DNA from: a virus
Taxonomy: Duplodnaviria; Caudoviricetes
IMG/VR virus record: IMGVR_UViG_3300032030_000005
Location: 64,001 to 128,000 of that record
DNA: 64,000 nucleotides
Strand: one strand, 5' to 3'
A model generated the notes under the pieces. It did not search any database and was not told the DNA's origin. It was given only the letters and a program-made list of their open reading frames with translations. Shown here in pieces: positions 6,229-47,364 of the stretch (within the stretch, counting starts at the first letter, position 1; each line of letters starts with the position of its first letter). A program made the translations under genes and the position numbers.

Positions 6229-7263
6229 ATGATAAGTAGAGAAGAATATTTAAAGAAAGTAAGACAATCAAGTTTCTATCAAAATGCTAGTCTTATAGAA
6301 CGTAAAAGAATATTAGAAGATGCTAATAAACAGTATGATAGAAGATTAGAACGTGAAAAAGAAGAAAAAACCTTAAAAGAAGAAGTTTATGACTCTATTA
6401 ATAATTTAGAAATCACTGATGTATTTCAAAATTTTGAAGATAAATATGGTAAGGATAATACTACTGAACTAACTACATTTAAAGACTTACATCAGAAAGA
6501 TGCTTTTCCACCTCATGGAAAAGATAGAGCTAATTTATTTAAAGCTGTTCATGAAAGAGATAAAAATATTGGTGTAGAACATCAAGTATTTAAAAATGCT
6601 AATAAACAAAAAAGGATGTGCGAAGAAATGACATATGAAGATTTATTTTTAGAAGGTTATTATGATGCTTTAAATGAAACTAAAAAGGAAAAAGAGGAAG
6701 AAGAAAATTTTTTTAAAAAGCATAAAAAGAAGATTATTGCTGGTGCTATTGGGGCCGGAGCTATTGCTGGTGCTGCTGGTGCTATTCATCATGATAATAA
6801 AAAGAGTTTAGCAGTAGCTAATAAAGCAATTACAAATGCTAAAAAAGAAGGAACTATTGGTGTAGGATATTATGACACAGCACGTCATAAATCACATTTA
6901 ATAAATGATGACTCATCTAGAAAAGAAAAAATTAAAGTTGGTAGATTTATGCGTGCTAAAGATTATATAGAAAGAAAAAAATATGAAAGAACACCAAAAG
7001 ATCAATTTAGACAATCATACATTGATGAAATGGAAAAACGAGCTCATAATAAAGAATTAAACGATAAAATTATGAATAGATTAGGCGTAAAACATGAAGA
7101 TTATGATGAACTTGATGAGATATTCATGGAAGGTTATTATGATGCCATTAATGAAATGACTGAAATTGATAACTATGGTGATGAATATGATTATGATGAA
7201 TACAATGAATATGATGAATTATCTGATATAGATGAAGATGATATCAAACATTCATATAATTAA
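6229..7263 (+). CDS. Putative internal head (cargo) protein with two EGYYDA(L/I)NE tags
   Basis: Acidic tags flank a basic core that contains a Gly/Ala-rich hydrophobic segment. Acidic C-terminal tail. Confidence 0.6.
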   Translation: MISREEYLKKVRQSSFYQNASLIERKRILEDANKQYDRRLEREKEEKTLKEEVYDSINNLEITDVFQNFEDKYGKDNTTELTTFKDLHQKDAFPPHGKDRANLFKAVHERDKNIGVEHQVFKNANKQKRMCEEMTYEDLFLEGYYDALNETKKEKEEEENFFKKHKKKIIAGAIGAGAIAGAAGAIHHDNKKSLAVANKAITNAKKEGTIGVGYYDTARHKSHLINDDSSRKEKIKVGRFMRAKDYIERKKYERTPKDQFRQSYIDEMEKRAHNKELNDKIMNRLGVKHEDYDELDEIFMEGYYDAINEMTEIDNYGDEYDYDEYNEYDELSDIDEDDIKHSYN

Positions 7264-7276
7264 TAAATATAAATTT

Positions 7277-7311
7277 TCCCTAAAGGCTATATAGCCTTTA
7301 GGGATATTTTT
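7277..7311. terminator. Bidirectional terminator
   Basis: TCCCTAAAGGCTATATAGCCTTTAGGGA between convergent genes. Confidence 0.8.
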
Positions 7312-8081
7312 TAATTTATACAATACTTTTTAATAACAAGATTCTGTACTTTATAAACCTTATTAGAATTAAATGCTAATTTAATCATATTATCCTTAAA
7401 ATTATCTCCATATGCAACATCTGTAAATAGATTATCTATAAATACTTTAGTACACCAGAAATTACATTCTTTCATAGGATCATTTTCAATCATTAATTCT
7501 AATATATCTTCTGCTAATAAATTATATGTCTTAATACTTTCTATATTATCTGTAAAGAAATAAATTTGATTTAAATAGTCATTTGGAATAACTCCTTTAA
7601 GATTAATGTAAGCCTGATTCTTAGTATCTACATCGGCTACAATAGGGAATTCCTTAATATTATTAATAAAATAATTATATAATAAACTTTCCATATTATC
7701 TTCAATATTATTTACTAAGAAATTATAAATCATATGAATATAATGAATTTTAGTATCAAATAATAAAGCTTCACTAAAAGTTATTTTAAAATCAAAATGT
7801 TGTTCTATTGATGTTAAAATATTAGTAGCCATTTCATCCATAATCTGTTCAAGTTCTGGGATAAAGTCTTCATTATCTTTATACTTCTCATGTAAAAAGT
7901 TATATTTCTGAATTATATTTTCAAAGCAATCCATACTATTCTTTGGTATTTCTGTTTCATCGAATAATTGAATTATTTGCTGTTCTATATTATCTAAAGA
8001 TAATTCTGAAGAAAGATTACTTAATATATCTCTCTGATCATAATTACTTAAACTAATATCTTCATTTCTTTCTAACATCAT
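7311..8081 (-). CDS. Hypothetical acidic late protein
   Basis: 256-aa ORF, AAGGTGG RBS, late promoter 8113-8124. Confidence 0.75.
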   Translation of the reverse strand: MMLERNEDISLSNYDQRDILSNLSSELSLDNIEQQIIQLFDETEIPKNSMDCFENIIQKYNFLHEKYKDNEDFIPELEQIMDEMATNILTSIEQHFDFKITFSEALLFDTKIHYIHMIYNFLVNNIEDNMESLLYNYFINNIKEFPIVADVDTKNQAYINLKGVIPNDYLNQIYFFTDNIESIKTYNLLAEDILELMIENDPMKECNFWCTKVFIDNLFTDVAYGDNFKDNMIKLAFNSNKVYKVQNLVIKKYCIN

Positions 8082-8214
8082 AATAGTGTTCCACCTTTCA
8101 AAGAATTAAATTTATTAAAATGTTGTTTTTAATATATTAAAAAATAAATATATATTATAGTTGTGTTAAATTTTAAATATTTAAAATTAACGAATAATTT
8201 TAAAGGGGTAAGAA

Positions 8215-8505
8215 ATGATGGAAAAAGAAACAGCATTAAAAGTTAAAAGAATCATGTGTGACATGGAGGAGTTACGCAAGTTTACGGATATGGTATATTA
8301 TATTAACGATAATTCACCATATGAAGTAACGATGACTCTTAAGACAAAACTTACTGAAGAAGCAAATTCTGAAGTAAAAGAGGAAACAATCAGTATGATT
8401 TATCCTCACTTTACAAACAATGAAACATATGAGATGCTAAAGAGTCTCAAAGATCATTGTAACGCTAGAATTAAGGAATTGGAGGAAATCTTAGAGAAAA
8501 TTTAG
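8215..8505 (+). CDS. Hypothetical early protein
   Basis: Early promoter 8149-8165 and an RBS. Confidence 0.7.
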   Translation: MMEKETALKVKRIMCDMEELRKFTDMVYYINDNSPYEVTMTLKTKLTEEANSEVKEETISMIYPHFTNNETYEMLKSLKDHCNARIKELEEILEKI

Positions 8506-8519
8506 AAAGGAAGGTAAAA

Positions 8520-8972
8520 ATGGTAATTATGATAATAGATCATAATAACATTAAAGATCTTCAAAATGGTTATGATTTTGAAGATCTTTTCATTGATGAT
8601 GAGGAAGATTATCAGTTACAGATAAATTTCTCTGAATTTGAAAAGAACGGTGTATCTAATAAACCATTAGCAATATTAGTTAAAAGATGCTATAACAGGC
8701 ATTTTACTATTAATGTAAAAATCGATGCAGAAACTACCTTGTATGTATTAAGAAAATACATGGACAAAACTGCATCAAGATTGATGTTCACTTTAAATTT
8801 AAATGACAAAAATTATAAATATACGATAGGAGATGAAACAGTGTATAATAAGTCTCATTTAAATTTAAATGAAGGATCTGAACTTATCTTAGATCCAAGG
8901 AAACATGTAATTAAAGTTCTTAATTTAAGTGAAGCTAACGAAGCTTTATTTAAATTAAATAGAACACTTTAA
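8520..8972 (+). CDS. Hypothetical protein carrying the shared C-terminal tag (LNLSEANEALFKLNRTL)
   Basis: GGAAGG RBS, terminator 8980-9011. Confidence 0.7.
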   Translation: MVIMIIDHNNIKDLQNGYDFEDLFIDDEEDYQLQINFSEFEKNGVSNKPLAILVKRCYNRHFTINVKIDAETTLYVLRKYMDKTASRLMFTLNLNDKNYKYTIGDETVYNKSHLNLNEGSELILDPRKHVIKVLNLSEANEALFKLNRTL

Positions 8973-9059
8973 TTAAATTAAAACTAAGAGATTATATAGT
9001 CTCTTAGTTTTTTTTTTGTAAATTTTTAATATAAAAATATAATTATATTAAAAAGGAGA

Positions 9060-9647
9060 GTGATTAAAATGGATGAAATCACATCAGTTGCATTACTACC
9101 TGATATAAAAGTTATTAAAGAAAAATTAAAAAATTTAGATAAAAAAGATATATATGATGTAGATAATTTATTATGGGATATTACAAAAGATCAATTATTA
9201 ACTTTTAAGAATATAGCTAAAGATGAAGAACAATATAATCAATTTATGAATGATAATATTGATTTAAAAGCTATGTTTACAGTTGATGCTTTGGCTGCAA
9301 TAACAAATGAAAAATTAGAAGAATATAGTCAATGTGAAGAATTTAAAGATACAGATTTAAGATTAAAGACAACTATATATATTGATAAAGATTTGAATAG
9401 ACATATAGATTTTACTACAGAAACTATAGAAGAAGTAGATTTAGATGATGACGATGGATATCCACCATTTAATGATATGATAGAAAAATGTATAACAAAT
9501 TTTTGTAGAGAAGCTTTATCTGAAGAATTAAGTGAAGAAGAACTTGAAGAATTTATAAATGATAGACTTGAAGATTATAAAGAAGAACCTTATTCACCAG
9601 AATGGTTAGAAGGTTTTATAGCCGGTTATTTTGAAAAAGAAGATTAA
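9060..9647 (+). CDS. Acidic hypothetical protein ending in EWLEGFIAGYFEKED
   Basis: AAGGAG RBS. The C-terminus loosely resembles the EGYYDA tag. Confidence 0.7.
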   Translation: MIKMDEITSVALLPDIKVIKEKLKNLDKKDIYDVDNLLWDITKDQLLTFKNIAKDEEQYNQFMNDNIDLKAMFTVDALAAITNEKLEEYSQCEEFKDTDLRLKTTIYIDKDLNRHIDFTTETIEEVDLDDDDGYPPFNDMIEKCITNFCREALSEELSEEELEEFINDRLEDYKEEPYSPEWLEGFIAGYFEKED

Positions 9648-9653
9648 AAAAGG

Positions 9654-9686
9654 TCCGTAAAGAGTTAAGACTCTTTACGGATTTTT
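9654..9686. terminator. Bidirectional terminator overlapping the end of 9665-11002
   Basis: TCCGTAAAGAGT-TAAG-ACTCTTTACGGA. Confidence 0.8.
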
Positions 9687-11002
9687 AAATCTTGCATGAA
9701 TTTATCAAGTTCTTTTTCAGATAAACTATCTTCACCCATTAAATCATTAATCTTATTAACTATTCCCATATCAGCATAACATACAACTGTATATGTGGTA
9801 TTACTCATAGGATCTTTAGTTTTAAGAATGAATTCTTTTTCGTCAAAAGAATATACTTCAGGATCAACAAGCTTACCATTTATATATAAATCTATATCAA
9901 ATACTTTAGACATTTTAATCTTATATTTATTTAATAAATCACAAACTTTATGAACATTTGTTGGTAATACGGACTTAAGATCTAATTCATCATATTCAAC
10001 ATTAACTTCTGGTAGGAAGTTCCTTCTAAATAAAAGATTCCTTCTATTCTTGGTGTATGGAATATAATCTTCATTCATTATTAATGAGAATCTATACATA
10101 CCATCATCATAATCTTCTGGTTGTTGTAATTTAATATTCTTAAATCTTTCCATATTATCTAATTCCATAATAAATGTAGCCGGTGTCCATAATTCAGCAG
10201 TAATACTATATTCAATTTGTGAATTTTGAATAACGTTCTGTCTAAGATTTCTGTTATTATTAGACATATCAGGATAATTAACTAAAATATTAGCTGGATA
10301 CTTAAACATAAAACGATCATTACCAGTTGACAAATCTTTAGTTAAATAAATACCATTATATGAATACTGCATCATAAAATCTTCCATACGTTCCTTATCA
10401 GCTGGATCTGACAAGTCATAATTTAATCTATTTGCAATATTACTAATAATAAATGGAGGAACTTGTGTCTGTAAGAATATCTTATTTAAAAAGAAATATC
10501 CATTAGTCTGAAAGTTCTGATCTATATATGATAAACAATTCCAACCCTGTAATTCAGAATTAACTCTAATACCAATTCTAAACTGTATTTTAGTTCTCTT
10601 AAATGAATTAAATATTCTTATACCAGTAGATTCATCTTCAAATATTAGATTATAATTCTTTTTAAGTTTCTTTAAATATATCCATGAAGTATCTGTAAAT
10701 AATAGTGGTAATTGACCCATATAACCTTCTGATAAATCAAATTGAGGTTGCACAAATAAATATGGTCTCTTTTTAGGTTCAAAATAATCTTTTTGAATAG
10801 CACTTGCTGCCATTGTAGTAGATATATATGTTTCTTTAAAATATTTATCTGGAAATTTAGATTTAAAATATTCAGTCATATAACTTGTTACAGAACCTAT
10901 AATAGATGATAAGGCATTAGAAGAACTACAAACAGAAATAGTACTATATGTTTGATTTACTATTTGCTCTTCTCTACCCGGATCTCCAAATGTAATATTC
11001 AC
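9665..11002 (-). CDS. Virion structural protein, possibly tail completion/terminator
   Basis: 445 aa, GTG start, late promoter 11028-11039. Function inferred from context only. Confidence 0.5.
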   Translation of the reverse strand: MNITFGDPGREEQIVNQTYSTISVCSSSNALSSIIGSVTSYMTEYFKSKFPDKYFKETYISTTMAASAIQKDYFEPKKRPYLFVQPQFDLSEGYMGQLPLLFTDTSWIYLKKLKKNYNLIFEDESTGIRIFNSFKRTKIQFRIGIRVNSELQGWNCLSYIDQNFQTNGYFFLNKIFLQTQVPPFIISNIANRLNYDLSDPADKERMEDFMMQYSYNGIYLTKDLSTGNDRFMFKYPANILVNYPDMSNNNRNLRQNVIQNSQIEYSITAELWTPATFIMELDNMERFKNIKLQQPEDYDDGMYRFSLIMNEDYIPYTKNRRNLLFRRNFLPEVNVEYDELDLKSVLPTNVHKVCDLLNKYKIKMSKVFDIDLYINGKLVDPEVYSFDEKEFILKTKDPMSNTTYTVVCYADMGIVNKINDLMGEDSLSEKELDKFMQDLKIRKES

Positions 11003-11113
11003 AATAACACTTCCTTTCTTTAAATAATAAATGGATGTTAAATTTATATAATTTATTATTAAATATTTAATTTAACAAATAAATAATTAATACTTTAATA
11101 AGTAGGTGATATT

Positions 11114-11578
11114 ATGGAAAATGAAGAAAATAAAACAGAAGTATTAGATGTAACATTAGTTGATCCATATGAACATGTAGATGTAATAAGTGATACATTC
11201 TATGAAGGTAAAGAAAAAGCAACTGTATCAGATATAGAATATATGTGTAATTTTATAGCTAATAATATTGGATGTGAATATTGTCCATTAAAAGTTAGTA
11301 ATAAAATTTGTCCATTTGCTTTATTACTTAAAAAGTATGGTACATATACAGAAATCAATAAAGAAATTTTAAAATGGTTATCTGAAAATCCACCAACAAG
11401 TTATTTAATGGATATTAGAGAGAAAATGCCAAATGTTGTAATTGATTCAAATTATAATATTCCTAATTTCTGTGTTAAAGATATCTATGGTAATGATTGC
11501 TGCGAATGCTGTAAATCAGATAATGTATTTGATAAAGCAGATATGTACTGTAGGAAATGCTGGAGACAACCAATGTAA
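11114..11578 (+). CDS. Cys-rich hypothetical protein
   Basis: CEYCPL...CPF and FC...CCECC...CRKCWRQPM. Late-type promoter 11074-11085. Confidence 0.7.
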   Translation: MENEENKTEVLDVTLVDPYEHVDVISDTFYEGKEKATVSDIEYMCNFIANNIGCEYCPLKVSNKICPFALLLKKYGTYTEINKEILKWLSENPPTSYLMDIREKMPNVVIDSNYNIPNFCVKDIYGNDCCECCKSDNVFDKADMYCRKCWRQPM

Positions 11579-11582
11579 AAAT

Positions 11583-11622
11583 AATAAACCCTTAAGAGAT
11601 ATACTCTTAAGGGTTTATTTTT
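11583..11622. terminator. Bidirectional terminator
   Basis: 16-bp stem between convergent genes. Confidence 0.8.
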
Positions 11623-12304: not shown

Positions 12305-12320
12305 TTATATCATCCTCTCG

Positions 12321-12842: not shown

Positions 12843-12938
12843 AATATTTTCACCACCGTATAATTTTAAGTTATTTATATATTTATATATTATATATATG
12901 TTAAATTTAAATATTATATTTAAAGGAGGTTAATATCA

Positions 12939-14216: not shown

Positions 14217-14266
14217 AATTTAAATTTTGGTGAAAACATAAAATTACAAGGAGGGAAAAGAAAATT

Positions 14267-15523: not shown

Positions 15524-15587
15524 ATTAATAATAAAGACTCTTATATCTTAGTATATAAGAGTCTTTAATTTTTTAGGAGGAAGTTTT

Positions 15588-15914: not shown

Positions 15915-15966
15915 TTATATATTATAATATAGTCTATAAGACAATATTTATATTAGGAGGAATAAC

Positions 15967-18342: not shown

Positions 18343-18346
18343 TATA

Positions 18347-24151: not shown

Positions 24152-24355
24152 AGATATATACAGTCCTATAATAATTACCGAGGATGATATCTATGGATGC
24201 TTAGTATACGCCAAGATTGTGACAACAGGCTTCTTTAAAGAAGTTGTTGTCAAAAAAATTAAATCACTCTTTAAGAAGTGATAATAAGATTAAATACTCC
24301 AGAGACTAAAAATTCTCTGGAGTATTTTTTTAACAATTTAGTGAGGAAATATTTT

Positions 24356-25468
24356 ATGAAAAAAACAACTGAAGACTTTAAAATAGAAGTAAGTAATTTA
24401 ACTAATAATGAATATACATTGATATCAGAATATATCAATAATAAAACAAGAGTTACAATTCAACATAATAAATGTAATAATATATATGAAGTTAGACCAG
24501 ATAGATTTATTCAAGGTGATAGATGTCCTTATTGTGCTGGGAAAATTGTTACCACTGATGAATATAAGAATAAAGTATATAATTTAACAAATGGTGAATA
24601 TGAGCTAATATCAGAATATATCAATAATAAAACTAAAATAAAAATACTGCATCATAAATGTAATAATATTTTTGAAATAACACCTATTAATTTTAATAAT
24701 AATCATAGATGTCCATATTGTTCACACCCAAGTAAGAAGAATTCTATAGAAGATATTAAAACTAAAATATTCAATCAAGTTAATAATGAATATACTTTAT
24801 TAAGTGATACATATATAAATAATAAATCTAAATTATTATTTAGACATAATAAATGTGGTAATGAATTTGAATCTAGTGCTGATAACTTTCTTAATAAAAA
24901 GAGACGTTGTCCTAAATGTTCTTTAGAATTAAGAAGTAAAAAACATAAACTAACTCATGAAGAATTCTTAGCTAAAATACCTAAAGATGTTTTTAATGAT
25001 TATGATATATTAACTAAATATACAGCTAGAAAAAATAATATTAAAGTCTTATGTAAAAAATGTAATAATACTTTTATATTAACAGCTGATGAATTTCTAG
25101 CTGGCAATAGATGTCCTCACTGTAGAGTATCTATTGGTGAAGATTTTATAGATAAATGGTTAACTAAAAATGGTTATGAACATATATGGCATTTTAAAGA
25201 CTTTAAAGATTGTAAATATAAAAAGACTTTAGAATTTGATTTTAAATTAGAAGATTCTAATGGTAAAATATTTATAATTGAATATGATGGTGAATTTCAT
25301 TTTTTACCTATATATGGCAAAAAACAATTAGAGCTACAAATTAAAAGAGATAACATTAAAAATGATTATTGTAAAAAACATGGAATAGATATTTATCGAA
25401 TACCATATACAAAGTTTAATGAATTAAATTCTATATTGGAAAGTATTGTTAGTAAATATAATTATTAA
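24356..25468 (+). CDS. Free-standing homing-endonuclease-like protein: repeated Zn-ribbons plus a Vsr/EDxHD-like nuclease domain
   Basis: Four repeats of Y.L.S.Y.NNK......H.KC.N.F......F....RCP.C, then SIGE...FDF...IIEYDGEFHF...RD..K. Start ATG 24356 (GAGG RBS) is preferred because 24278 lies upstream of a terminator. Confidence 0.8.
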   Translation: MKKTTEDFKIEVSNLTNNEYTLISEYINNKTRVTIQHNKCNNIYEVRPDRFIQGDRCPYCAGKIVTTDEYKNKVYNLTNGEYELISEYINNKTKIKILHHKCNNIFEITPINFNNNHRCPYCSHPSKKNSIEDIKTKIFNQVNNEYTLLSDTYINNKSKLLFRHNKCGNEFESSADNFLNKKRRCPKCSLELRSKKHKLTHEEFLAKIPKDVFNDYDILTKYTARKNNIKVLCKKCNNTFILTADEFLAGNRCPHCRVSIGEDFIDKWLTKNGYEHIWHFKDFKDCKYKKTLEFDFKLEDSNGKIFIIEYDGEFHFLPIYGKKQLELQIKRDNIKNDYCKKHGIDIYRIPYTKFNELNSILESIVSKYNY

Positions 25469-36867: not shown

Positions 36868-36885
36868 GATAAGGATGTGATATAA

Positions 36886-39800
36886 ATGGCAGATATGAAA
36901 TCTTCTAAAGATAAACTTAGTCAAGCAGTTAATAATATGGATCCAAATCTTCAAAAAATAGCAGCTAATACTGATGCAATTGTATCTACCTTATCTCAAC
37001 AAAGTAGTGCAATTCAACAATTAAAGGATGCTATTGCTAGAAAAGAACAAACTGAAAATGAAGGAAATAAACAGATCACTTCATCATTAAAACAAACAAA
37101 TTCTACAATATCATTAATAAATAAAAATATATTAAATCTTAATAAAAATGTAACATCATTAACTAAAACAGTATCTAGTTTAAATGAAAGTAGAGGAACT
37201 ACAGTATCCTTATTATGCGGAATTCAAACTAGTTTAATTCAAATTACTAGTGTTCTTGCATCTTTTAGATCAGATTATTTATTATCAACTAACGGTCAAA
37301 GAATTAATGGTAATTCTTTTTATGATATGACTAGTTTAAATAATCTAGTTAATTCATTATCATCACTTAAAGACCCAACAGTTAAACAAAATATTCAAGC
37401 ATTGCATAAAGCTTTAAAATATGCTAATAGCTCTTCAAAGAGTGTCAGAAGCCATTTAGGACAAAATGTAACTAATGAAGATAGTATATTTGAAAAGATA
37501 TTAGGTATTGCAGATACAGGAAAACAATATGCTGGTTTAGGTGCATTATTTAGTCCTTATATTAAAGGTGGCAAATTTAACAGTGTTATTGATAGATACA
37601 TGAATGCAGATACATCATCAATAGCTAATTTATTCTATTCAATGTTAGGCTCTAATGGTAAGAAAACTATTAAAGATATAAAAGGATTAGGTTCTAAATT
37701 TTCTGATTCAAATAATCCTCTTAAGCGTTTAATAGGCAATATGATGGGTCAAGCAGGATTTAAAAATGAAAAGAAAGAACGTGAAAAAGATCCTACTTTA
37801 GTATTAAGTTCATTAGCACCTTTTGCAGATGATATCAAAGATATGGTTAATTTATCATATCAAGGTGTAAAATCAAGACCTAAATCAATACCAATATATG
37901 CAAAGCCAGTTTGGATTGTAAATAGTCCAGATCAAAAAAATTATGTTGGTAATGTAAAAGCTAAAGATACGCATGGTGCAGATTTAAAACGTAAAAGACT
38001 TGAAGATTTATTTGGTGGTAGAGCCAATAATCTTAAAGATATTTATGGTAATGAATTATTATATCAAGATGAAGATGGTCATTGGAAAGGTTCTGCAACT
38101 GAAGGTTTCAATAATAAACAAATAAGAAATATTAGACAAAAACAAGAAAGCCGTAATAGAAAATTAATGTATGGCGAAAATTATAAAGAATTAGAAAATA
38201 AAATATATGGTAGTAAAATATTAAATACTGGAATAGGAATTGGTAATTTTAAATTATCATTAAATGATTTATTATCTGAAGATCCTAATAATGTAATGGG
38301 TAATATGATTAGTAATTTAGCAGCTAATGGATTACAACAAATACCTGGATTATTAGGAAGCCATGCCGGTGGTAAAAAAGGTAAAAAGAGAAGAAAAGGT
38401 CTTGATCCAAATCGTGAAATAAATACTAATGATCATGATGTTAGTTTAATAGATGGTGAAACAACTGTACTTAATGCTTCTCAAACAGATAATCTTAAAG
38501 ATATGGGAGATATTAAATCTGGTATTACCACAATGTCAGGTGCTATTGCATCTCTTGCTAGTATTATATCTCAATCAACTATATTATTTAGCCAAGCGGC
38601 ATCTAGTAAGAAACAAAAGATAGATAGTAAAGTATTAAATAAACTTAGTCCTGATGAATCAGTATTTGATTATTTATTAAAAACTTCGGGTTCTGATGAA
38701 GGTTCTAAGAAAGCTTTAACACAATTTAAGAAATTCTCTAATCTTAAGAAAACCTTAAAAATAACTAGTAAAAGAGAAACAACTTCAGAATACTTTGGAT
38801 TAAATCCAAATGAAGGTAATGGTAAAAAAGGTGTATTAAGCGGTGCTATTGATTCATTAACTACCAAACTTGGTGTAAATAAAGATCTCGTTAAAGACCC
38901 TAAGCGTTTTATTAAAAATAGTATTATAAGAAAAGTTAACAACACGTTTTCATTAAAGGGTACTTCATCGAACGGAACAGCTGATAAAATAGCTGAAGGA
39001 GTATCTGATGATAAGAATAAAAAGAAAATTAAGGGTTTATTTAAGAGCTTTAAGAAGCAACAAGACTTAGAAATTAAAGATAAGATTAAAGAAGGAACAA
39101 CTGGCTTAAAAGATGTGGCTAAAGTATCTGCAACTAATGAAACAGTTACTAATAGTATTAATACTGCAGAAACTGCTGCAGTAGAAGCTAATATTAAAGC
39201 AGATGCTGCAACTAATGCTTCTATTAATAAAATGAAAATGGCAAATGCTAAACAAGAAGAAGCTACAAAAGCAGCAGCTGATAAAACAGAAGTAGCTCAA
39301 CAAATAGCAACTGATAAGTTTGTTAATGCTACAGAAGTTAAAACAGCGGCTCAAGAAGCTATGGTTCAGGAAGCATCTGTAGGAGCTGAAGCAGGAGCAT
39401 CTACAACAAGCTTTTTAGGAAAAATAACGGCTACAATGTGTGGTCTTCCATTACCAGTTAAAATAGGCCTTGGAGCTGCCGGTGTTGCTGCTACAGTTGC
39501 TATTGGTAAGAAAATGTATGATAAAGTTAAACAAGCTGCCAATGGTAAAAAACCGAATTTTGAAGATAGTCAGTCTTCATTAAAAGGTGCAAGTGGAAAA
39601 ACCGAAAAGGAAGCTCAGAAAGAAAAAGAAAAAGCAGAAAAAGCTCAAAAGAGACAAGAAAGATTAGAGAATTTTAAGAAAAGAGCCAAGAGAAGTTTAA
39701 AATCTAGCTTTAATGCTTTAACATTAGGATTATTTGCACAAAAAGTTTATGTTGCTGATAATGGTGATGTATTATATTCTAAAGATAATTCTCCAGTAAA

Positions 39801-42627
39801 GAAATTAGATAAACATGGTAATGAAACTGAAGAAACATTAAATGTTAAAGATACATCAGGAAAGGTACAGTTAGCTAATAGATTAGCTGCTCGTGAATTT
39901 AAATTAGATAAAGTAAAAACTGCTAAATTTATAGCTTCTAAAGTTAAAGATGGTGTATCTAAATTAAAAGATAAGATAAAAGAAAAAGCAGAACAAGTTA
40001 AAAGTTGGGCTGGTAAACATAAAGGTGAAATAGCTGCTTTTGCAGTAGGTGGTATTGCTGGAGTAGGAGCTTATGAAGTTGCTAAAGGTGCTTATAAAGG
40101 TGTAAAAACTCTTAAAGAAAATAAATATGAAAAGATAAATCAGATGTTAACAGTAGCATCTACACCATTCTTATTTATGGATAATAAAATGAAGAAATCT
40201 ATTGAAAAATTACAAAATAGCAAGATTGGTAAACAGATGTTAAATCAGCCAATGAAAGCAGCTAAAACATTATTCCAGACTGCTACGTATAGTATATTCG
40301 GTAGTAGTGAAACTGCCGCTGAAAAATCTGGTCTTAAATCTTTATTAACGAATATTACTAAGAAATTAACAGGCGAAGATGATCATAAAGATAAATTTAC
40401 ATCTAACTTAGAAGATATTGGTGAAGAAAGTGCAACAGTAGCATATTCAAAGTTAAATGAAAATAATCTTAGAAATAGAATATTAAATGCTTTTGCTAAA
40501 GCTACTGGTATTGCTACTGCTAAAAAAGGTGATAATGGTCATGTAATGACAACTTCTCAAATCGTTGATGAAGAAAGAACGAAAAATGCTTCATTACAAA
40601 TTGCAGCAAATGGTACAGCTGGTAATGCTAGTGGTGCTAATATGTCAGGTACTTGGAATTCTGCTGCACAAATGATCAATGGACCAACAAAAGGTCAAAC
40701 TGTTCAAGATTATGTACTTAAAACATTACAAAATAGTAGTATTTCTAGAGGCGTATCAGATGGACATAGAGGTGTTGACTTCGCCGCAGCAATGAACACA
40801 CCAATTTATTCTCCATTTGAAGGTAAAGTTGTAGCCAGTGCATACGATCCAGATAGAATCATATGTACTAATAATGCAGGTGGAAATGATGAAAATGGAT
40901 CAATGGGTAACTTCGTATTAATGCAATTACCAAATGGTAATTATGCAACATTTATGCACATGGTAGAAGGTCCTGCAGTTAGAACTGGCGAACTTGTTAA
41001 AGCTGGACAGTTACTAGGTAAAGTAGGTAATACTGGTGGTAGTTACGGTGCTCACTTACATTTAGAAATAAAAAGTGGTATGTGGGGTGGTACAGTACTT
41101 GATCCGGCATCATATGGTTTAGGAAGAAAAGGTAAAAAATTAGATGGTTTTGATAAAAATAAAAAGACAACCGGATACGGTGCTCATGTATATCAAAGAG
41201 ATTATTCTAATATTATCTTTAATAAAAATGGTGATGAAACATTACAAACATTAGGTGATTCTGGTTGCGGTCCAGCAGCTGCAACTGTTGTTAAAAGATT
41301 ATATACGAATGGTAAAAGTAGATTTGGTAGAGCTGATAATAAAAATAAAGATAATAAAGATAAAAGTACAGCTAAAGCATCTACAGTTCAAAATCCATTA
41401 GGAAAAACAGCTTCATTCTCAGACGATTATGGTAATACATTTGATATTACTATTGAGCAAGAACATATTGATGTATTTAATGCTTGTAAAGAATGTGGAT
41501 GTTCTGATGCGGCTGCTTGTGGTGTATTAGGTAATTTACATCAGGAAACAGGTGGTACTGGTGAAAGATTAAGACATTGGGCTGAAAACCATGGTGAATA
41601 TGGTGGAGGTATCATGCAATGGACTCCTTGGACTAAACATGTTGATTGGGCCAACAGTCATGGTATGAACCCTTGGACTTGGGAAGCAAGTTTAGCACAT
41701 ATGCAAGACGAATTGCTTAATGGTGGTAACTGGTCTAACCCTCAAGATGCTAGTCCTTCTTTAGCAAGTGAAGGTTATCATGCTTGTTCTAATACTCCAG
41801 AATTTATGGCATTAAATGATCCAGCTGATGCAGCAGTAAACTTTGAAAGAGCATTTGAAGTTTCAGGTGACTGGAATGGTAGAAACTCAGAAGGTATTGT
41901 ATATAGTGAAAATCAGCTTAGAGACAGAAAGAGAGTTGGTCCTGCTATTGCATATTATGAATGCTTAGTAGGTACATATAATGGTTCTGTAAGACTTAGA
42001 TCGTCAGTAAATGGAGTTTCTGGAAGTACAGGATTTATTAATATTATTACTGATAGTGTTGTAAGTGGATCTCAGTTAGCTAATTATATGAATGCTAACA
42101 AATCTACTAATAATAGTACTACAGATATAACAGCTAGTAATGGAAGCACTGCTACTACAGGTAATGGTCGTTTTGGTAGGGGTGTAAGTTTTGGTAATAT
42201 TCATTTTGAATCTACTAGTTCACCAAATAATAATAACAATAGTATACAAAGTAATATAACTAAAACTGCAGCTGTTGCTCCTTCAGTAGGTTCTTATATA
42301 AAGAATAATATGTCTATAACAGATACCGATGATAAAGGAAATTCAAAAACAACAACAAGCGTATATACTACTGATAATAAAACAACTTTAACAACAAACG
42401 GTAAATCAACAATTGTTATTTGTAATAACTTTACGGAAAAGACTAAGACGGATTTAAGTGAGATACTTTCTAACTTTAAAAAGTTAAACGGTACTCAAGC
42501 TAATGCTTTAAAAGTATTAAAAGCTATATCTGATTTAATTAAAGAAGAAAATTCAGAAGCATTAGAAAGTCTTTCAAATCTTAAACTTTCTAATGATGGT
42601 CTTGATTATATCCTTAAAGGATTATAA
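36886..42627 (+). CDS. Tape-measure-like tail giant B: M23 peptidase, Cys half of a C39-like peptidase and phage tail lysozyme
   Basis: N-terminal ~480 aa paralogous to giant A. M23 motifs HRGVD...HM...GAHLHLE. C39-like YQRDY...DSGCGPAAA. Lysozyme motifs GVLGNLHQE...GIMQWT...FERAFE. Confidence 0.85.
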   Translation: MADMKSSKDKLSQAVNNMDPNLQKIAANTDAIVSTLSQQSSAIQQLKDAIARKEQTENEGNKQITSSLKQTNSTISLINKNILNLNKNVTSLTKTVSSLNESRGTTVSLLCGIQTSLIQITSVLASFRSDYLLSTNGQRINGNSFYDMTSLNNLVNSLSSLKDPTVKQNIQALHKALKYANSSSKSVRSHLGQNVTNEDSIFEKILGIADTGKQYAGLGALFSPYIKGGKFNSVIDRYMNADTSSIANLFYSMLGSNGKKTIKDIKGLGSKFSDSNNPLKRLIGNMMGQAGFKNEKKEREKDPTLVLSSLAPFADDIKDMVNLSYQGVKSRPKSIPIYAKPVWIVNSPDQKNYVGNVKAKDTHGADLKRKRLEDLFGGRANNLKDIYGNELLYQDEDGHWKGSATEGFNNKQIRNIRQKQESRNRKLMYGENYKELENKIYGSKILNTGIGIGNFKLSLNDLLSEDPNNVMGNMISNLAANGLQQIPGLLGSHAGGKKGKKRRKGLDPNREINTNDHDVSLIDGETTVLNASQTDNLKDMGDIKSGITTMSGAIASLASIISQSTILFSQAASSKKQKIDSKVLNKLSPDESVFDYLLKTSGSDEGSKKALTQFKKFSNLKKTLKITSKRETTSEYFGLNPNEGNGKKGVLSGAIDSLTTKLGVNKDLVKDPKRFIKNSIIRKVNNTFSLKGTSSNGTADKIAEGVSDDKNKKKIKGLFKSFKKQQDLEIKDKIKEGTTGLKDVAKVSATNETVTNSINTAETAAVEANIKADAATNASINKMKMANAKQEEATKAAADKTEVAQQIATDKFVNATEVKTAAQEAMVQEASVGAEAGASTTSFLGKITATMCGLPLPVKIGLGAAGVAATVAIGKKMYDKVKQAANGKKPNFEDSQSSLKGASGKTEKEAQKEKEKAEKAQKRQERLENFKKRAKRSLKSSFNALTLGLFAQKVYVADNGDVLYSKDNSPVKKLDKHGNETEETLNVKDTSGKVQLANRLAAREFKLDKVKTAKFIASKVKDGVSKLKDKIKEKAEQVKSWAGKHKGEIAAFAVGGIAGVGAYEVAKGAYKGVKTLKENKYEKINQMLTVASTPFLFMDNKMKKSIEKLQNSKIGKQMLNQPMKAAKTLFQTATYSIFGSSETAAEKSGLKSLLTNITKKLTGEDDHKDKFTSNLEDIGEESATVAYSKLNENNLRNRILNAFAKATGIATAKKGDNGHVMTTSQIVDEERTKNASLQIAANGTAGNASGANMSGTWNSAAQMINGPTKGQTVQDYVLKTLQNSSISRGVSDGHRGVDFAAAMNTPIYSPFEGKVVASAYDPDRIICTNNAGGNDENGSMGNFVLMQLPNGNYATFMHMVEGPAVRTGELVKAGQLLGKVGNTGGSYGAHLHLEIKSGMWGGTVLDPASYGLGRKGKKLDGFDKNKKTTGYGAHVYQRDYSNIIFNKNGDETLQTLGDSGCGPAAATVVKRLYTNGKSRFGRADNKNKDNKDKSTAKASTVQNPLGKTASFSDDYGNTFDITIEQEHIDVFNACKECGCSDAAACGVLGNLHQETGGTGERLRHWAENHGEYGGGIMQWTPWTKHVDWANSHGMNPWTWEASLAHMQDELLNGGNWSNPQDASPSLASEGYHACSNTPEFMALNDPADAAVNFERAFEVSGDWNGRNSEGIVYSENQLRDRKRVGPAIAYYECLVGTYNGSVRLRSSVNGVSGSTGFINIITDSVVSGSQLANYMNANKSTNNSTTDITASNGSTATTGNGRFGRGVSFGNIHFESTSSPNNNNNSIQSNITKTAAVAPSVGSYIKNNMSITDTDDKGNSKTTTSVYTTDNKTTLTTNGKSTIVICNNFTEKTKTDLSEILSNFKKLNGTQANALKVLKAISDLIKEENSEALESLSNLKLSNDGLDYILKGL

Positions 42628-42682
42628 AAAATTAGTGTTAAGGAAATTATATTCCTTAACACTAAAATTTATTATATAAGAG

Positions 42683-44236
42683 GTGAAATATATGCCTGAT
42701 AATTTTTTAGAAAGTGCTTCATTAGACTCTGTGGGTTATGAAAACTTCTATACCGAAGGAGAAAATGGTGAAAGTTTAGGAAAAAATTCAGCATTCTTTA
42801 ATTCTAATGAGGTTCAACCATCTGAAGGTGTTACTGTAACTGGTAAACCTATGAGTAGTCACGTTGCTATGGCTATTACCGGTAAAGATGTTAAAAATGG
42901 AATATTCTTTGGTAAAGAAAATAAAGTATTTGGATTACCTTTTAAGTATGGTCCTTTAGCTGATCCTATGGGTAGAGTATTTCAAAGCACATTTGAAACA
43001 GATAGTTCATGTGTAGCTTTTATTAAATTTGGCGTACCAAAAATTAATAGAGCTTTATTTGGTAAAATGTCTGCTGATGCTAGTGATACACCATCATTTG
43101 GTTTAAATATTTATTATGGTTTTAGATCAGCTATTGATCCAACAACTAATACACAAGACCAAAGATTAATTACATTTGAACCTAAAATGAATCAATTTAT
43201 GAAATACGCAAATGCTTCAATTAATGAAGTATATACATTATTAGACTTACCGGGTTTATTTTCTACAGATGGTTATACAGATGAAGAATTTGAAAACGGT
43301 TTTGCATTTTTCTGTACTAAAACAAGCACAATTACTGAAAGCGTAGATAATAATTATACAGAACCAGACATTATTACTAAAATGAACTCAGATGCAGCTT
43401 TACGTAGACAAAATTATCAGATGTATGGTACTTATGGTAGTATTGCTAACGATTCAGGTGGTACTGATGCTATAAGCTGGTTAGAGTCAATAGCTAATAC
43501 TCAATTACAAAAAGTTGCTGAAAATATTGCCGATAGTCCTATTATTGGTTCTGTTGCTTCAGCATTTATGAAATCAAATAAAGGCACTATGGGTTATTAT
43601 GGAGAATTATGGGCTGACTCTAAGACTTCTGATAGCTTTTCATTACAATTTAAATTTAGATCACCATATGGTTCTAAATATGAAATATTCAGAAATTGTT
43701 TCTTCCCATTCTTATTATTACATACAGCCGCTATTCCAAAACAAGATGGTAGATTTAGTTATCAAGAACCATTTATGATAATGATTGATTTTCCGGGTTG
43801 GTTTAGAGTTAATTGTGGAGTTATTCAATCTTTAAGCTGGGTTAAAGGTGGTAGTAATGCATTATTTAATGTAGATGGCTTACCATTAGAAATAGAAGTT
43901 ACTATGAATGTTAAAGATCTCTATCCAGTTCAATTATCTTCAGAAAATGTTACAGTTATGGAATATAACTGGGGTCTTTTAAGTTTCTTAGAAAATATGG
44001 CTGGATTAACAACGGCTCAAGCGGCTTATATAAGTAATGTACAAAGTTTCCAAAATGCAATAAGAACTACAATGGCTCAAAGTGATGGTTCTATTATGGG
44101 CAATACTAAAGCTTATTTTAATGCACATTATCGTGTAGCCGCTAATAAATGGAATGCTGCTGGTGGAACAGTGGGCGGATTGATTACAAATGGAGCAAAA
44201 AGAGAAATACGTTCAAGAAGTTATTTAGGTCGTTAA
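42683..44236 (+). CDS. Conserved jumbo-phage virion protein (baseplate hub / tube-initiator-like)
   Basis: ELWADS...FRSPYGSK...P.Q...YQEPF...G.I.S....KG......GLPLEIEV....DLY. Follows the tape-measure genes. Confidence 0.55.
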   Translation: MKYMPDNFLESASLDSVGYENFYTEGENGESLGKNSAFFNSNEVQPSEGVTVTGKPMSSHVAMAITGKDVKNGIFFGKENKVFGLPFKYGPLADPMGRVFQSTFETDSSCVAFIKFGVPKINRALFGKMSADASDTPSFGLNIYYGFRSAIDPTTNTQDQRLITFEPKMNQFMKYANASINEVYTLLDLPGLFSTDGYTDEEFENGFAFFCTKTSTITESVDNNYTEPDIITKMNSDAALRRQNYQMYGTYGSIANDSGGTDAISWLESIANTQLQKVAENIADSPIIGSVASAFMKSNKGTMGYYGELWADSKTSDSFSLQFKFRSPYGSKYEIFRNCFFPFLLLHTAAIPKQDGRFSYQEPFMIMIDFPGWFRVNCGVIQSLSWVKGGSNALFNVDGLPLEIEVTMNVKDLYPVQLSSENVTVMEYNWGLLSFLENMAGLTTAQAAYISNVQSFQNAIRTTMAQSDGSIMGNTKAYFNAHYRVAANKWNAAGGTVGGLITNGAKREIRSRSYLGR

Positions 44237-44264
44237 ACTTTATATTATTAATATACTGAAAGGT

Positions 44265-44891
44265 GTGAAAATTATGTTTAGAATTCCAGAAAGTGCTTTA
44301 CGCTATGAAAAATATAAAAGATTATTAGAAGCTGCTGAAGAACAAGATCCTAATGCAGTTCCACAGGAAGATCCTAATGCTGCTCAAGATCCAAATGCTA
44401 TGCAGCAAGGAGATCCTAATGCTCAAGATCCTAACGCAGAAATGGATCCAAACGCTCAGGAAGATCCTAATGCTATGCAAGGTGGCCAAGATTCAGGAAT
44501 ATCTCAAGCTCAGACACCAGAAGAAGCTTATGAAGCTGGATTAAAAGAAATTCAGAATACTATTGCAATGACTGGTAGAAAGCGTTATGCTAGATATAAG
44601 ATGAATGGTGGTAAGGATAGTTGGGAAATCTTTAGAAAAAATCTTGAAGATTCATTAAAGCAAGAACTTGAAGAAGATTGCAAAGAGATGTTCGGTTATA
44701 ATCCGGGTAAAACTACTGAAAAAGATTTACTCGTTATGATTAAAAATGGTATTGAACAACTCAATCAGGCTATGCAGCAAGGAATGGCTCAAGAAGCGGC
44801 TCAAGATCCTAACGCACAACAGGCAATGCAAGAAGCTTATGATTTTATCGCAGAAAGAAATTATAGAAGATTAATGGAAAGAAATTTTTAA
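44265..44891 (+). CDS. Late protein with DPNA repeats (possible head/scaffold component)
   Basis: Eight DPNA units, late promoter 44236-44247. Confidence 0.65.
   Translation: MKIMFRIPESALRYEKYKRLLEAAEEQDPNAVPQEDPNAAQDPNAMQQGDPNAQDPNAEMDPNAQEDPNAMQGGQDSGISQAQTPEEAYEAGLKEIQNTIAMTGRKRYARYKMNGGKDSWEIFRKNLEDSLKQELEEDCKEMFGYNPGKTTEKDLLVMIKNGIEQLNQAMQQGMAQEAAQDPNAQQAMQEAYDFIAERNYRRLMERNF
44343..44476 (+). repeat. Tandem coding repeat (GATCCTAATGCT-like, encoding DPNA)
   Basis: Seven imperfect units here, and an eighth near 44802. Confidence 0.85.
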
Positions 44892-44909
44892 GTAAGGAGG
44901 TAAACTAGT

Positions 44910-46130
44910 ATGGTTTATACTACTTACTTAAATGAAGAAATTGCAAATGATGAAATTTATCCAATTTTTATAGCTTTATCTGAAGGCAAATCTTATATTT
45001 CTAAAAAAATAAAAGATGTTACAAAATGTCCATATTCACATTGTATGATAGGATTAGATCCAGAATTAAAGTATTTTTATAGTTTTAATATAATTGATAA
45101 TTTTAATAATGGATTTGTAATTGAAACCCTAGAAAATTTAGCAAAGAAAGCTAATAGTATAAATATATATGTATTTTTTGTAAATAGATCTATATACAAA
45201 AATATAGTTAAATCTATTAAGAGGTACAATGATTTAAAAGATAAAACTAAGTATAGTATTAAAAGATTATTTGAAGCTGCTTTTAATAAAGGTAAAGAAA
45301 CTAATCCTATGCAACAGGTATGTTCATCATTTGTTTATAGTATTTTATCGCATTCAGGAGTACATTTAGCTCCAGATAATATATTATGTGTAAAACCTTC
45401 AGATTTTTACACTACTATAAATAATAATAAAAAATATATCTATCAGATATATGAAGGAAGTCCTCTTGATATAAATATGGATGATATTACTATTGAATTG
45501 AATAAATTAAAAGATAAGAAAAGTACTAAAGAATTTAATCAAGAAAAAATAATACTTACAGAAAGTGAACGTATATATCCAGAAACTGTCGATAGGTCAG
45601 CATATGATAATTTTGTATTATTTAATTTATTTCATGTTTACACAACAGATATGACTTTGAGAAATGATCCACAATTTATATCTAAAATGAAATGGGTTAA
45701 AGATAGAATAACTGAAATATGTGATATGGCTGGATGGACAGTATTTCCTTATGAATTAACTTTATGTGCATCATTTGAAGACCTAGATGAATTTTATAAT
45801 CATCAAGCTCCTAAATGGGTAACTGGTTTTACATATGGTGATAAAGTTTATATGAAAGGACCTGCTATATATCCTGGAGAACTTTATTATAATGTAGTAT
45901 TACATGAATGTATTCATGTTCAAATATATCTTAATGAAAAAGTACAAGGAAAAACTATATCACGAGAAGATGAAGAAGGTATGGCCGTTTTCTTTAGTAC
46001 TCCACTTGATAAATGGCTTAAGGAATTAAATCATGGTCCTAACTGGTATTATTATGAGAGTGCAATAAGAGTTCAAGAAGACTTTTTAAATTATGGAATG
46101 AAAAAAGTAATTCAGAAAAGATTTAAATAA
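44910..46130 (+). CDS. Permuted papain-like (YaeF/YiiX-type) domain fused to a HExxH zincin-like domain
   Basis: PYSHCMIGLD...VCSSFVYSIL...VKPSDF (His before Cys), then VVLHECIHV...EEGMA. Confidence 0.75.
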   Translation: MVYTTYLNEEIANDEIYPIFIALSEGKSYISKKIKDVTKCPYSHCMIGLDPELKYFYSFNIIDNFNNGFVIETLENLAKKANSINIYVFFVNRSIYKNIVKSIKRYNDLKDKTKYSIKRLFEAAFNKGKETNPMQQVCSSFVYSILSHSGVHLAPDNILCVKPSDFYTTINNNKKYIYQIYEGSPLDINMDDITIELNKLKDKKSTKEFNQEKIILTESERIYPETVDRSAYDNFVLFNLFHVYTTDMTLRNDPQFISKMKWVKDRITEICDMAGWTVFPYELTLCASFEDLDEFYNHQAPKWVTGFTYGDKVYMKGPAIYPGELYYNVVLHECIHVQIYLNEKVQGKTISREDEEGMAVFFSTPLDKWLKELNHGPNWYYYESAIRVQEDFLNYGMKKVIQKRFK

Positions 46131-46173
46131 ATTCAGATACTATTAGACATGATTTATTATAAATTTATATGAG

Positions 46174-46785
46174 GTGATTTTAATGCGTTTTTATAACGAA
46201 GGTAACAAATGTAATTGTGGCAAGAGATCTTGTCCTGAATGCAATCCAAAGATTAGCAAGATTAGTAAGCCAGATGCAAATGGTTTAGTTAATAAGAAAA
46301 CAATTGGTAATCATTATATGAAGTTTGATGAAGCATTTATGCAGGGTTATTATGATGCTTTAAATGAAATGGAAGAATATGATGAATATGAGGAAGAAGA
46401 TGCTTATGAATCTTACAATGAAGAAGATTTAGAAAATGCATATCTTGAAGGTTATTATGCTGCTTTAAATGAAACATCAGCAGCTACTAAAGCTAAACAA
46501 AGATCACTTGGTATGAAAGGCGTTAAAGGTGGAACACATACTCATAATAATGACGATTTTTGGCCTTTATGTAATTCTGGAGCTTTTAAAAAAGATGAAG
46601 CTGTTAGAGATTATAGAAATAAACACAGGTCTGACTATTTAACAGTTAAAAGACAGAGAATGCTTGGTGGTAAGACTGTGGAAATTGCAGATGCTCCAAA
46701 TGGTAAAAGATATAGTATTTGGACTAAAGGACATCAGTATCCAACTTCAGAAAGAATTATTCCTAATAGGAAGCCTAATAAGTGA
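46174..46785 (+). CDS. Putative internal head protein with two GYYxALNE tags
   Basis: CNC...CPEC N-terminus, AFMQGYYDALNE and AYLEGYYAALNE tags, basic C-terminal part. Confidence 0.65.
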   Translation: MILMRFYNEGNKCNCGKRSCPECNPKISKISKPDANGLVNKKTIGNHYMKFDEAFMQGYYDALNEMEEYDEYEEEDAYESYNEEDLENAYLEGYYAALNETSAATKAKQRSLGMKGVKGGTHTHNNDDFWPLCNSGAFKKDEAVRDYRNKHRSDYLTVKRQRMLGGKTVEIADAPNGKRYSIWTKGHQYPTSERIIPNRKPNK

Positions 46786-46786
46786 T

Positions 46787-46828
46787 AAAATATTCCCTTA
46801 AGACTAATAAGTCTTAAGGGAATATTTT
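46787..46828. terminator. Bidirectional terminator
   Basis: 19-bp stem between convergent genes. Confidence 0.85.
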
Positions 46829-47364
46829 TAATAAAGTTCTGCTAATGCATCATAATATCCTTCTAAAAATGCTTCAGTAAGATAATCTTCTTTAAATCCT
46901 TTAGTATATTTAACAGCTGCGTCATATGTGTTTTTATCCATTTCAGAATAATCACAAGTTTTATGTTTAAAACCTTTTCTGATAATTTCATGATTTTTTA
47001 TTTTTTTACTACCTTTAATAGCACCAACAGTTCCAACAGTAGCAAACATACCACTAGCAACAAGAACTCTTCTTAATCTTTTCATAGTTTGAATATCTTC
47101 TGGTGTTTTATTTTTTTTCGCTTTTAACGCTTTATATTTCTTTAATGCTGCTGCACCATTAGCAACATTTCCTATAGCCATAGCACCATGGATAGCTGTA
47201 TTAGCAATTTCTTTATTTCTATGTTTCTTTGCAACATCAGATAAATATTTATTTTGTACATAATGTGCATCTATTTTTCCATTACTGTCTATATGTTTTA
47301 CAGCTGCAGGATGATTAGTTCCTTTAGTTGACTTGCTATCAACTCTAACCCATTCTTCTGTCAT
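46828..47364 (-). CDS. Basic putative head-cargo protein with a C-terminal FLEGYYDALAE tag
   Basis: K/H-rich with two Gly/Ala hydrophobic stretches. Directly downstream of RNAP beta-C exon 2. Confidence 0.65.
   Translation of the reverse strand: MTEEWVRVDSKSTKGTNHPAAVKHIDSNGKIDAHYVQNKYLSDVAKKHRNKEIANTAIHGAMAIGNVANGAAALKKYKALKAKKNKTPEDIQTMKRLRRVLVASGMFATVGTVGAIKGSKKIKNHEIIRKGFKHKTCDYSEMDKNTYDAAVKYTKGFKEDYLTEAFLEGYYDALAELY

Follow-up and report, generated by a model that had tools for sequence, protein, structure and literature searches.

The 64-kb window analysed here (bases 64001-128000 of a 305,865-bp IMG/VR virus record, which we call the genome) comes from an uncultured relative of Bacillus phage AR9/PBS1 with 27% G+C, and it encodes a short acidic peptide, hereafter the tag, that recurs in proteins with little else in common. 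The tag is a real and portable module, is predicted to be helical and is restricted to one clade of phages. We put at about even the chance that it is a portable head-addressing helix, a functional counterpart of the phage T4 capsid-targeting sequence (CTS), that is cut off when it stands at an N terminus. A sequence-only reading of the window had proposed such a head-targeting module, and this proposal fits the presence of a gp21-type protease and of a T4-type portal and capsid protein, the L/I-x-E ending of most tags, an L-x-E in the capsid protein itself, the linkage of tagged genes to head genes, and the addition of a tag to a RibD_C enzyme.

Tag copies in the window

The extended motif is (Y/F)(E/D)(E/D)x(F/Y)(L/M)(E/Q)GYY(D/A)A(L/I)xE, which is predicted to form a helix about 17 residues long that is acidic and amphipathic and has small residues (GxxxA) on one face. 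In the window (F/Y)(L/M)(E/Q)GYY(D/A)A(L/I)xE occurs five times, in the three genes P0001, P0002 and P0003 (Table 1). The sequence-only reading had reported five nearly identical copies of EGYYDALNE; four of them do match the underlying 27-mer with 0-3 mismatches (6652-6678, 7129-7155, 46342-46368 and 46447-46473, against zero matches in 100 shuffles), but the fifth (46837-46863, minus strand) has 5 mismatches and encodes EGYYDALAE. The near-identity at the DNA level that it stressed is genuine only in part: tag-core codons are identical in 93% of comparisons, above the 67% expected from the codon usage of this AT-rich genome. Codon bias accounts for most of the identity, and a DNA-level function of the repeat was judged unlikely.

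The excess of identical codons, and the clear shuffling of modules among relatives, would also suit repeats that are the footprint of recent duplication or mosaic recombination among paralogues, that is, a recombination joint whose peptide has no function. This we consider extremely improbable, since the peptide persists among phages with capsid-protein identities of only 76-90%, in which flanks, linkers and upstream regions have diverged, and since the conserved residues (G, YY, A, L and E) follow helix logic and not DNA identity.

The three genes are otherwise unrelated, as had been stated: with the tags masked, P0001, P0002 and P0003 have no similarity to one another at E<0.01. Translation likewise bears out the variable placement of the tag, which is internal in P0001 and P0002, C-proximal in P0001 and at the extreme C terminus in P0003. 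P0001 is itself a mosaic; its N-terminal ITDVF module occurs in a relative as a stand-alone protein tagged at the C terminus, and the middle of P0001 is paralogous to the 160-aa (amino acid) tagged protein encoded at genome position 38195. Two "weaker relatives" of the tag, reported in the open reading frames (ORFs) at 9060 and 44265, did not survive: neither is matched by the tag profile hidden Markov model, and the C terminus of the 9060 product reaches only E ~0.13 against tagged proteins with phmmer. This 9060 product is an acidic 192-aa protein (window 9060-9647, plus strand) whose C-terminal end, EPYSPEWLEGFIAGYFEKED, is tag-like (xLEG-aromatic-x-A-G) and is not significant by profile or phmmer.

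Extent and anatomy of the tag family

The motif recurs through the whole genome: a degenerate DNA pattern finds 11 copies, and with peptide and profile scans the count rises to about 15, spread over 12 proteins. A double-tag profile was run against 1.84 billion representative proteins and matched no more than 35 of them, which, apart from one repeat protein that is a likely false match, are small (39-371 aa) mosaic proteins of related AT-rich phages. Within IMG/VR the tag is present on a few contigs with G+C contents of 23-30%, among them another one of 265 kb. It is absent from cultured phages, in that three tagged proteins gave no tblastn match among 50,697 phage records, and megablast of the tagged locus gave no match either. 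Tagged proteins have no Pfam match at cut-off and no PHROG match at E<0.01 (DUF6761 appears only at E 0.14-0.26), the ESM Atlas contains no usable look-alike for them, and the string GYYDAL was not found in a full-text literature search. The genomic contexts of two distant family members contain no structural neighbours.

The census of the family comprises 83 tags in 42 proteins, with from one up to three or four tags per protein and with copy numbers that vary among orthologues. The tag opens 32 of the 42 proteins, typically as M-(N/T)-Y-E-(E/D)-L-F-L-E-G-Y-Y-D-A-L-N-E. Nine tags are C-terminal, each followed by two or three further residues, and the others are second copies or lie between modules. 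The third-last position of the tag is L or I in 95% of the 83 copies, the final residue is E in 77% of them and D in 13%, and about three quarters of the copies (75%) end in L/I-x-E; in the ITDVF cargo family the preceding tag ends in an invariant I-N-D. The tags of a double leader stay fixed, while the D/E/Y-rich linker between them varies over 8-25 residues. AF2 models of a double tag make both tags helical (block pLDDT 76-84) and the linker floppy and of low confidence; the model of P0033, which has an N-terminal tag, an ITDVF module and a C-terminal tag, has a mean pLDDT of 51.5 and is too poor to judge tag packing. Prediction of a complex between the capsid protein (65-row alignment) and the double tag (8 rows) gave a score of 0.00, a result with no bearing on binding either way.

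Two convergent genes that begin with double tags (genome 141985 and 142502; Table 1) have near-identical 48-residue leaders, 92% identical over the first 60 aa, and basic tails that are not related to each other. The 5' ends of the two genes make up an inverted repeat with arms about 1 kb apart.

The cargo modules that accompany the tag are few and shuffled. They include basic tails, a Lys-flanked Gly/Ala-rich hydrophobic segment, a CxCGxxxCPxC knuckle, the modules ITDVFxNFEDKYG and NPFPIIGG, and a Pox_D5-like piece. The claim that the acidic tag lies beside basic cargo stands: double-tag leaders have charges of -13 to -20 and the remainders of these proteins +12 to +25, with leader/cargo pairs of -18/+18, -15/+17 and -14/+15 among them. 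Charges that cancel so nearly could mean that tag and linker act mainly as an intramolecular chaperone that masks basic, nucleic-acid-binding tails until these arrive where they act, and that holds no addressing information. That explanation would leave the near-invariant EGYYDAL core unexplained when the linkers are free to vary, and it does not account for the tags of cargos that are close to neutral, among them the RibD_C enzyme (charge of the rest of the protein -4) and the ITDVF module; we regard it as very improbable.

Of 14 proteins that are tagged or encoded nearby, 9 contain Gly/Ala-rich hydrophobic segments (one or two each, 18-22 residues long) bordered by Lys or Arg. These proteins could be late membrane proteins with single-pass glycine-zipper anchors, in which the tag would be a cytoplasmic oligomerisation or docking helix that serves lysis control, superinfection exclusion or membrane-bound assembly. 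C-terminal and internal tags would then require no cleavage, and one neighbour of the tagged genes matches a phage "membrane protein" family. Such a role appears quite improbable to us: P0002, the double-tag proteins of genes 141985 and 142502 and the RibD_C enzyme have no hydrophobic segment, and the strong N-terminal bias of the tag, its L/I-x-E ending and the linkage of tagged genes to protease, capsid and virion genes all speak against it.

Head machinery and candidate cleavage sites

The capsid protein is 43% identical to AR9 gp116, and pieces of multisubunit RNA polymerases are encoded in the genome. The head module is of the T4 type, with a Portal_T4 portal, a Peptidase_S77 prohead protease and a Gp23 capsid protein. 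The protease matches PF03420 with 36 bits, which is above the cut-off, and the PHROG "head maturation protease" family with E 7e-20; its identity is 44% with the AR9 homologue and 54-57% with the proteases of Listeria and Staphylococcus jumbo phages (44-57% overall, PBS1 included). A group I intron (Rfam RF00028, 75 bits, E 9e-19; genome 235481-235849, L015:9481-9849) interrupts the protease gene, so the 172-aa protease ORF contains only exon 1 and read-through; the 97-aa ORF that lies 3' of it probably holds exon 2. The AR9 protease gene is likewise split.

The capsid protein gene (genome 289966-291765, L016:958-2757, minus strand) encodes the N terminus MSVIYQKKMTTSSPTDAFSRRLNE↓TQDYF, where the arrow here and below marks the putative cut. 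It includes the motif D16-x-F-S-x-x-L22-x-E24, in which D16, F18 and E24 are present in at least 90% and L22 in most of the homologues compared (65-98 sequences, down to 33% identity). The L-x-E at residues 22-24 reads RLNE↓T in this phage and TLKE↓S in AR9, and the whole motif is a candidate maturation cleavage site for the entire AR9-like group. The virion proteome paper on phage vB_BpuM_BpSp (PMC4870245) contains no processing data.

We note that the AR9 virion protein gp114 (L024:6435-6893, minus strand), whose gene lies next to that of the AR9 protease, starts with an acidic helix that contains L-V-E and L-K-E and also has a single hydrophobic segment and a basic tail. It shares this architecture with several of the tagged proteins, to which it has no detectable sequence similarity.

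A tag added to a RibD_C enzyme

Residues 32-233 of the protein encoded at genome 143719-144471 make up a complete RibD_C domain (Pfam E 1.5e-17). More than 1,100 RibD_C homologues, including ones that are 66-73% identical, begin M(R/K/N)RP(I/V)TTLF; in this comparison only the protein of this phage has MLNKAFLEGYFDAYMYEILNE↓QQNPSN in front of RPVTTLF, a 26-residue N-terminal add-on. Since the homologues all start without a leader, the tag was added to a ready-made enzyme. A cut after LNE would nearly restore the native start.

Linkage of tagged genes to head genes

The three genes that lie directly 3' of the protease gene are all tagged or leader-bearing (Table 1), and tagged genes are within 3 kb of the protease gene in five of seven relatives, whose proteases are 80-87% identical. 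The product of the gene that adjoins the capsid gene begins with a degenerate tag, MYDFYNEDYLLEGS. The gene of the 160-aa tagged protein (L009) adjoins a phrog_2926 virion protein gene, and P0002 and P0003 adjoin a phrog_20401 virion protein and a 406-aa protein that begins MVYTTYLNE↓E.

This linkage also bears on the main rival explanation, in which the prohead core or scaffold consists of the tagged proteins. The GxxxA helix would self-associate, its one to four copies per protein would cross-link an internal core on which the shell is built, and the protease would dismantle the core at L-x-E, after which most fragments would leave the head instead of reaching the host. The occurrence of tags at N termini, C termini and joints, with up to three or four in a protein, suits cross-linking of this multivalent kind. 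Three tag-like elements, together with a long acidic run, are present in the 337-aa protein, whose gene occupies the place of T4 gene 22; the capsid-adjacent protein starts with a degenerate tag, and T4 core proteins are also cut at L/I-x-E (PMC9026906). On the other hand, a complete RibD_C enzyme with a single N-terminal tag looks like cargo, and the basic glycine-zipper cargos are closer to internal or ejection proteins than to acidic helical scaffolds. We hold this explanation to be unlikely. A distinctly unlikely further possibility is a multivalent address-and-joint code independent of tag position, in which homotypic GxxxA pairing of tags both builds the core and recruits tagged proteins, L/I-x-E sites split mosaic polyproteins within the head, and Asp variants stay uncut.

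Some proteins encoded next to the protease in this phage and its relatives (including L029:6870-7493, minus strand, and L030:2732-4002, plus strand) have shorter starts, namely MNYLDMILAE↓A, MNYLELYNLNE↓S, MTYNEYLNE↓S and MNYRDLILE↓S. These 9-11-residue starts resemble in length and pattern MKTYQEFIAE↓A, with which T4 IPII and IPIII begin, and they may be a second, short class of leader. Of 260 genes, 4 show the pattern M-x-Y…(L/I)-x-E, where about 2 would be expected; the pattern was chosen post hoc and is a lead only.

Expression timing

The AR9 promoter consensus sequences are AAATATATATTAT-N6-G for early and AACA-N6-TA/G for late genes (PMC5312081). In the present genome the early-type TATATATTAT is enriched 5' of about 46 genes, and the late-type AAC(A/T)-N6-T(A/G), often followed by TTATA, has a sharp peak 35-45 nt before about 55 start codons. 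Promoter-like sites are found, for example, at window positions 5476-5491 and 44236-44251. Genes with the late-type motif in front of them include those of the protease, the AR9 gp111-like virion protein and P0005, and also the neighbour of the capsid gene. P0001 starts 12 nt 3' of the gp111-like gene and the two probably form one operon, so the motif in front of the latter probably serves P0001 too. Among clearly tagged genes 4 of 11 are preceded by the late-type motif (38195, 141985, 142502 and 196307). The variant found in this genome, AACTATA[A/T]ATTATTAA, has the appearance of an early site; AR9, however, has the same AACTATATATTAT in front of a late gene, g057, which encodes a virion structural protein. 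As far as promoter-like sequences can indicate, the tagged genes are consistent with late expression.

Comparison with known targeting systems

In T4 the CTS is present on IPI, IPII, IPIII and Alt and is removed by the prohead protease gp21 (Mullaney & Black 1996; PMC9026906); its ten residues suffice for core targeting, with residues 4 and 7 important for targeting and 8 and 10 for cutting, and Asp at position 10 blocks cutting and leaves targeting intact (PMC9026906). Alt is processed at both ends, and T4 relatives have other basic proteins with CTS-like starts (PMC9026906). The tag described here resembles the CTS in being a short terminal peptide common to otherwise unrelated, mostly small basic proteins, in the L/I-x-E with which most copies end, and in its occurrence in a phage that encodes a gp21-family protease and a T4-type portal and capsid protein. 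Like the CTS it can be placed on a foreign enzyme, here naturally on RibD_C, and its opening, M-x-Y-x-(D/E)-hydrophobic…E, is loosely similar to MKTYQEFIAE. The two differ in length (17 residues as opposed to 10), and the EGYYDAL core has no T4 counterpart. In contrast to the CTS, the tag is often doubled across a long D/E/Y linker and is also found C-terminally and between modules, and it belongs to an AR9-like (Takahashivirus-related) jumbo phage of an anaerobic community. From the sequences compared, the tag would be an analogue and not a demonstrable homologue of the T4 CTS.

Phages phiKZ, 201phi2-1 and SPN3US have long N-terminal propeptides on inner-body or ejection proteins, which are cut by gp175/gp245 (PMC7411985, PMC9026906). 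Like the present phage, these are jumbo phages that encode a gp21-like protease along with two multisubunit RNA polymerases; many of their head proteins are processed after Glu, and their propeptides, including a C-terminal one on the protease, have been proposed to target the prohead. Unlike the tag, these propeptides are 60-130 residues long and family-specific, with no shared portable motif, and their cleavage logo is (S/A/G)-x-E and not L/I-x-E. The C-terminal helix-turn-helix coat-binding domain of the P22 scaffold is similarly a small helix-loop-helix able to dock an internal protein, and the double tag is predicted to be helix-linker-helix; the P22 domain is basic, confined to the scaffold and not portable, whereas the tag is acidic. 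Encapsulin cargo-loading peptides are also short terminal peptides that address diverse enzymes into an HK97-fold shell. They differ from the tag in being usually C-terminal and extended, in binding the shell directly and in involving no protease, and their sequences are unrelated to it.

A proposed head-addressing helix and its limits

In the head-addressing reading, the tag helix is fused, singly or doubled, mostly to the N terminus of small late proteins. During assembly the helix would bind some part of the prohead core, which may be another tagged core protein (the 337-aa protein, for example), so that the attached basic, glycine-zipper or enzyme module would be enclosed in the head; the acidic leader would also offset the charge of a basic cargo. 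The gp21-type prohead protease would then cut N-terminal L/I-x-E tags after the Glu and free the cargo in the head, and Asp-ending or C-terminal tags would target without removal at their own site. By the T4 Asp precedent, the I-N-D-ending tag of the ITDVF family would likewise target without being cut. We infer binding, packaging, cleavage and any injection from the features described above.

Several points weigh against this reading. The sequence-only reading had given the tag a built-in cleavage site, and as a general feature this does not hold, because nine tags are C-terminal, where a cut at their own L-x-E removes only two or three residues, and because 23% of tags have no final Glu, one cargo family having an invariant I-N-D instead. 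An L-x-E upstream of the tag is found, by reading the sequences, in only about three of the nine proteins with C-terminal tags. The genome scan found no tag on the large late virion and RNA polymerase proteins; therefore other loading routes must exist, and the tag is not a universal loading signal. The glycine-zipper hydrophobic segment of most cargos also fits membrane proteins unrelated to the head, and such segments fit membrane-entering ejection proteins and ordinary membrane proteins equally. The late-type promoter is not significantly enriched on tagged genes (4/11 compared with 55/249, p=0.22). The cultured relatives AR9 and PBS1 have no tag by tblastn, so their virion proteomes are not transferable to the tagged proteins, and the phage itself is uncultured. 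Finally, the peptide is too short for homology to the T4 CTS to be demonstrable.

Features and neighbouring genes

The positions of the tags, of the genes that contain them and of neighbouring features are collected in Table 1.

Table 1. Tag-bearing genes, tag copies and associated features of the AR9-like phage (window, position in the 64-kb window; genome, position in the 305,865-bp record)
Feature	Position	Strand	Remarks
AR9-type late-promoter-like motif AACTATAAATTATTAA	window 5476..5491	+	19 nt 5' of gp111-like gene; consensus AACA-N6-TA/G (PMC5312081)
Virion structural protein, AR9 gp111 homologue	window 5510..6217	+	46.6% identity
P0001, 344-aa mosaic tagged protein	window 6229..7263	+	ITDVF-type module, tag, basic glycine-zipper module, tag, acidic tail
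Degenerate first (third-copy) tag of P0001, KEEVYDSINNLE	window 6376..6411	+	visible only in alignment with EGYYDAINDxE of relatives
Internal tag of P0001, MTYEDLFLEGYYDALNE	window 6628..6678	+	residues 134-150; translation, 27-mer match, tag profile
Gly/Ala-rich hydrophobic segment of P0001, KKIIAGAIGAGAIAGAAGAIH	window 6727..6789	+	
C-proximal tag of P0001, LDEIFMEGYYDAINE	window 7111..7155	+	residues 295-309; 27-mer match, translation
Virion structural protein, phrog_20401	window 42683..44236	+	in P0002/P0003 cluster
406-aa protein	window 44910..46130	+	between P0005 and P0002; short T4-CTS-like leader MVYTTYLNE
P0002, tagged protein of about 200 aa	window 46174..46785	+	Cys4 knuckle, double tag with acidic linker, basic tail
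First tag of P0002, MKFDEAFMQGYYDALNE	window 46318..46368	+	residues 49-65; 27-mer match, translation
Second tag of P0002, DLENAYLEGYYAALNE	window 46426..46473	+	residues 85-100; 27-mer match, translation
P0003, 178-aa basic protein	window 46828..47364	-	hydrophobic Gly-rich segments, C-terminal tag
C-terminal tag of P0003, LTEAFLEGYYDALAELY	window 46831..46881	-	residues 162-178; stop codon next
Tagged 160-aa protein	genome 38195-38677		
Convergent double-tag gene	genome 141985-142452	+	
Convergent double-tag gene	genome 142502-143062	-	
Tagged 330-aa protein	genome 196307		
337-aa protein	genome 236351-237364		first gene after protease, position of T4 gene 22; degenerate N-terminal tag, long acidic run, AYLEGYYYALESL, glycine zipper, tag-like C terminus
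319-aa basic protein	genome 237447-238406		after protease; start MTYNEYLNE↓S
185-aa tagged protein			third gene after protease

The N-terminal 148 residues of the 406-aa protein are weakly similar to a "cysteine peptidase" of Fusobacterium phages (29% identity, E ~1e-5) and its C-terminal part contains a HECIH zincin motif; the protein may be a packaged peptidase. The 1913-aa protein encoded at window 36886-42627 (plus strand) has an M23-type metallopeptidase or endolysin-like domain at residues of about 1290-1410 and is probably either a cell-wall hydrolase carried by the virion or a giant protein of the tape-measure kind. Genes for two phrog_559 HNH endonucleases (window 24278-25468, plus strand, and 47748-48782, minus strand) lie in late and replication regions, one of them between the tagged cluster and an RNA polymerase piece, and both are probably homing endonucleases.

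Implications

The concept of capsid targeting is already well established from T4, which limits the value of the finding. Were the address-and-joint code true, the set of packaged, and possibly injected, proteins of this uncultured AR9-like clade would be readable from sequence, and recombination at the tag would be enough to take up new cargo such as the RibD_C enzyme. Should the tag prove to be a head-addressing signal, it would extend the T4 capsid-targeting principle to the AR9/PBS1 jumbo-phage lineage, which packages a virion RNA polymerase and in which the loading of internal proteins is not addressed in the AR9 papers examined. It would also offer a longer and position-tolerant natural tag for the loading of foreign proteins into large capsids, and it would provide a sequence rule that lists the head-packed proteins of uncultured jumbo phages of anaerobic communities, membrane-active glycine-zipper proteins and a captured reductase among them.

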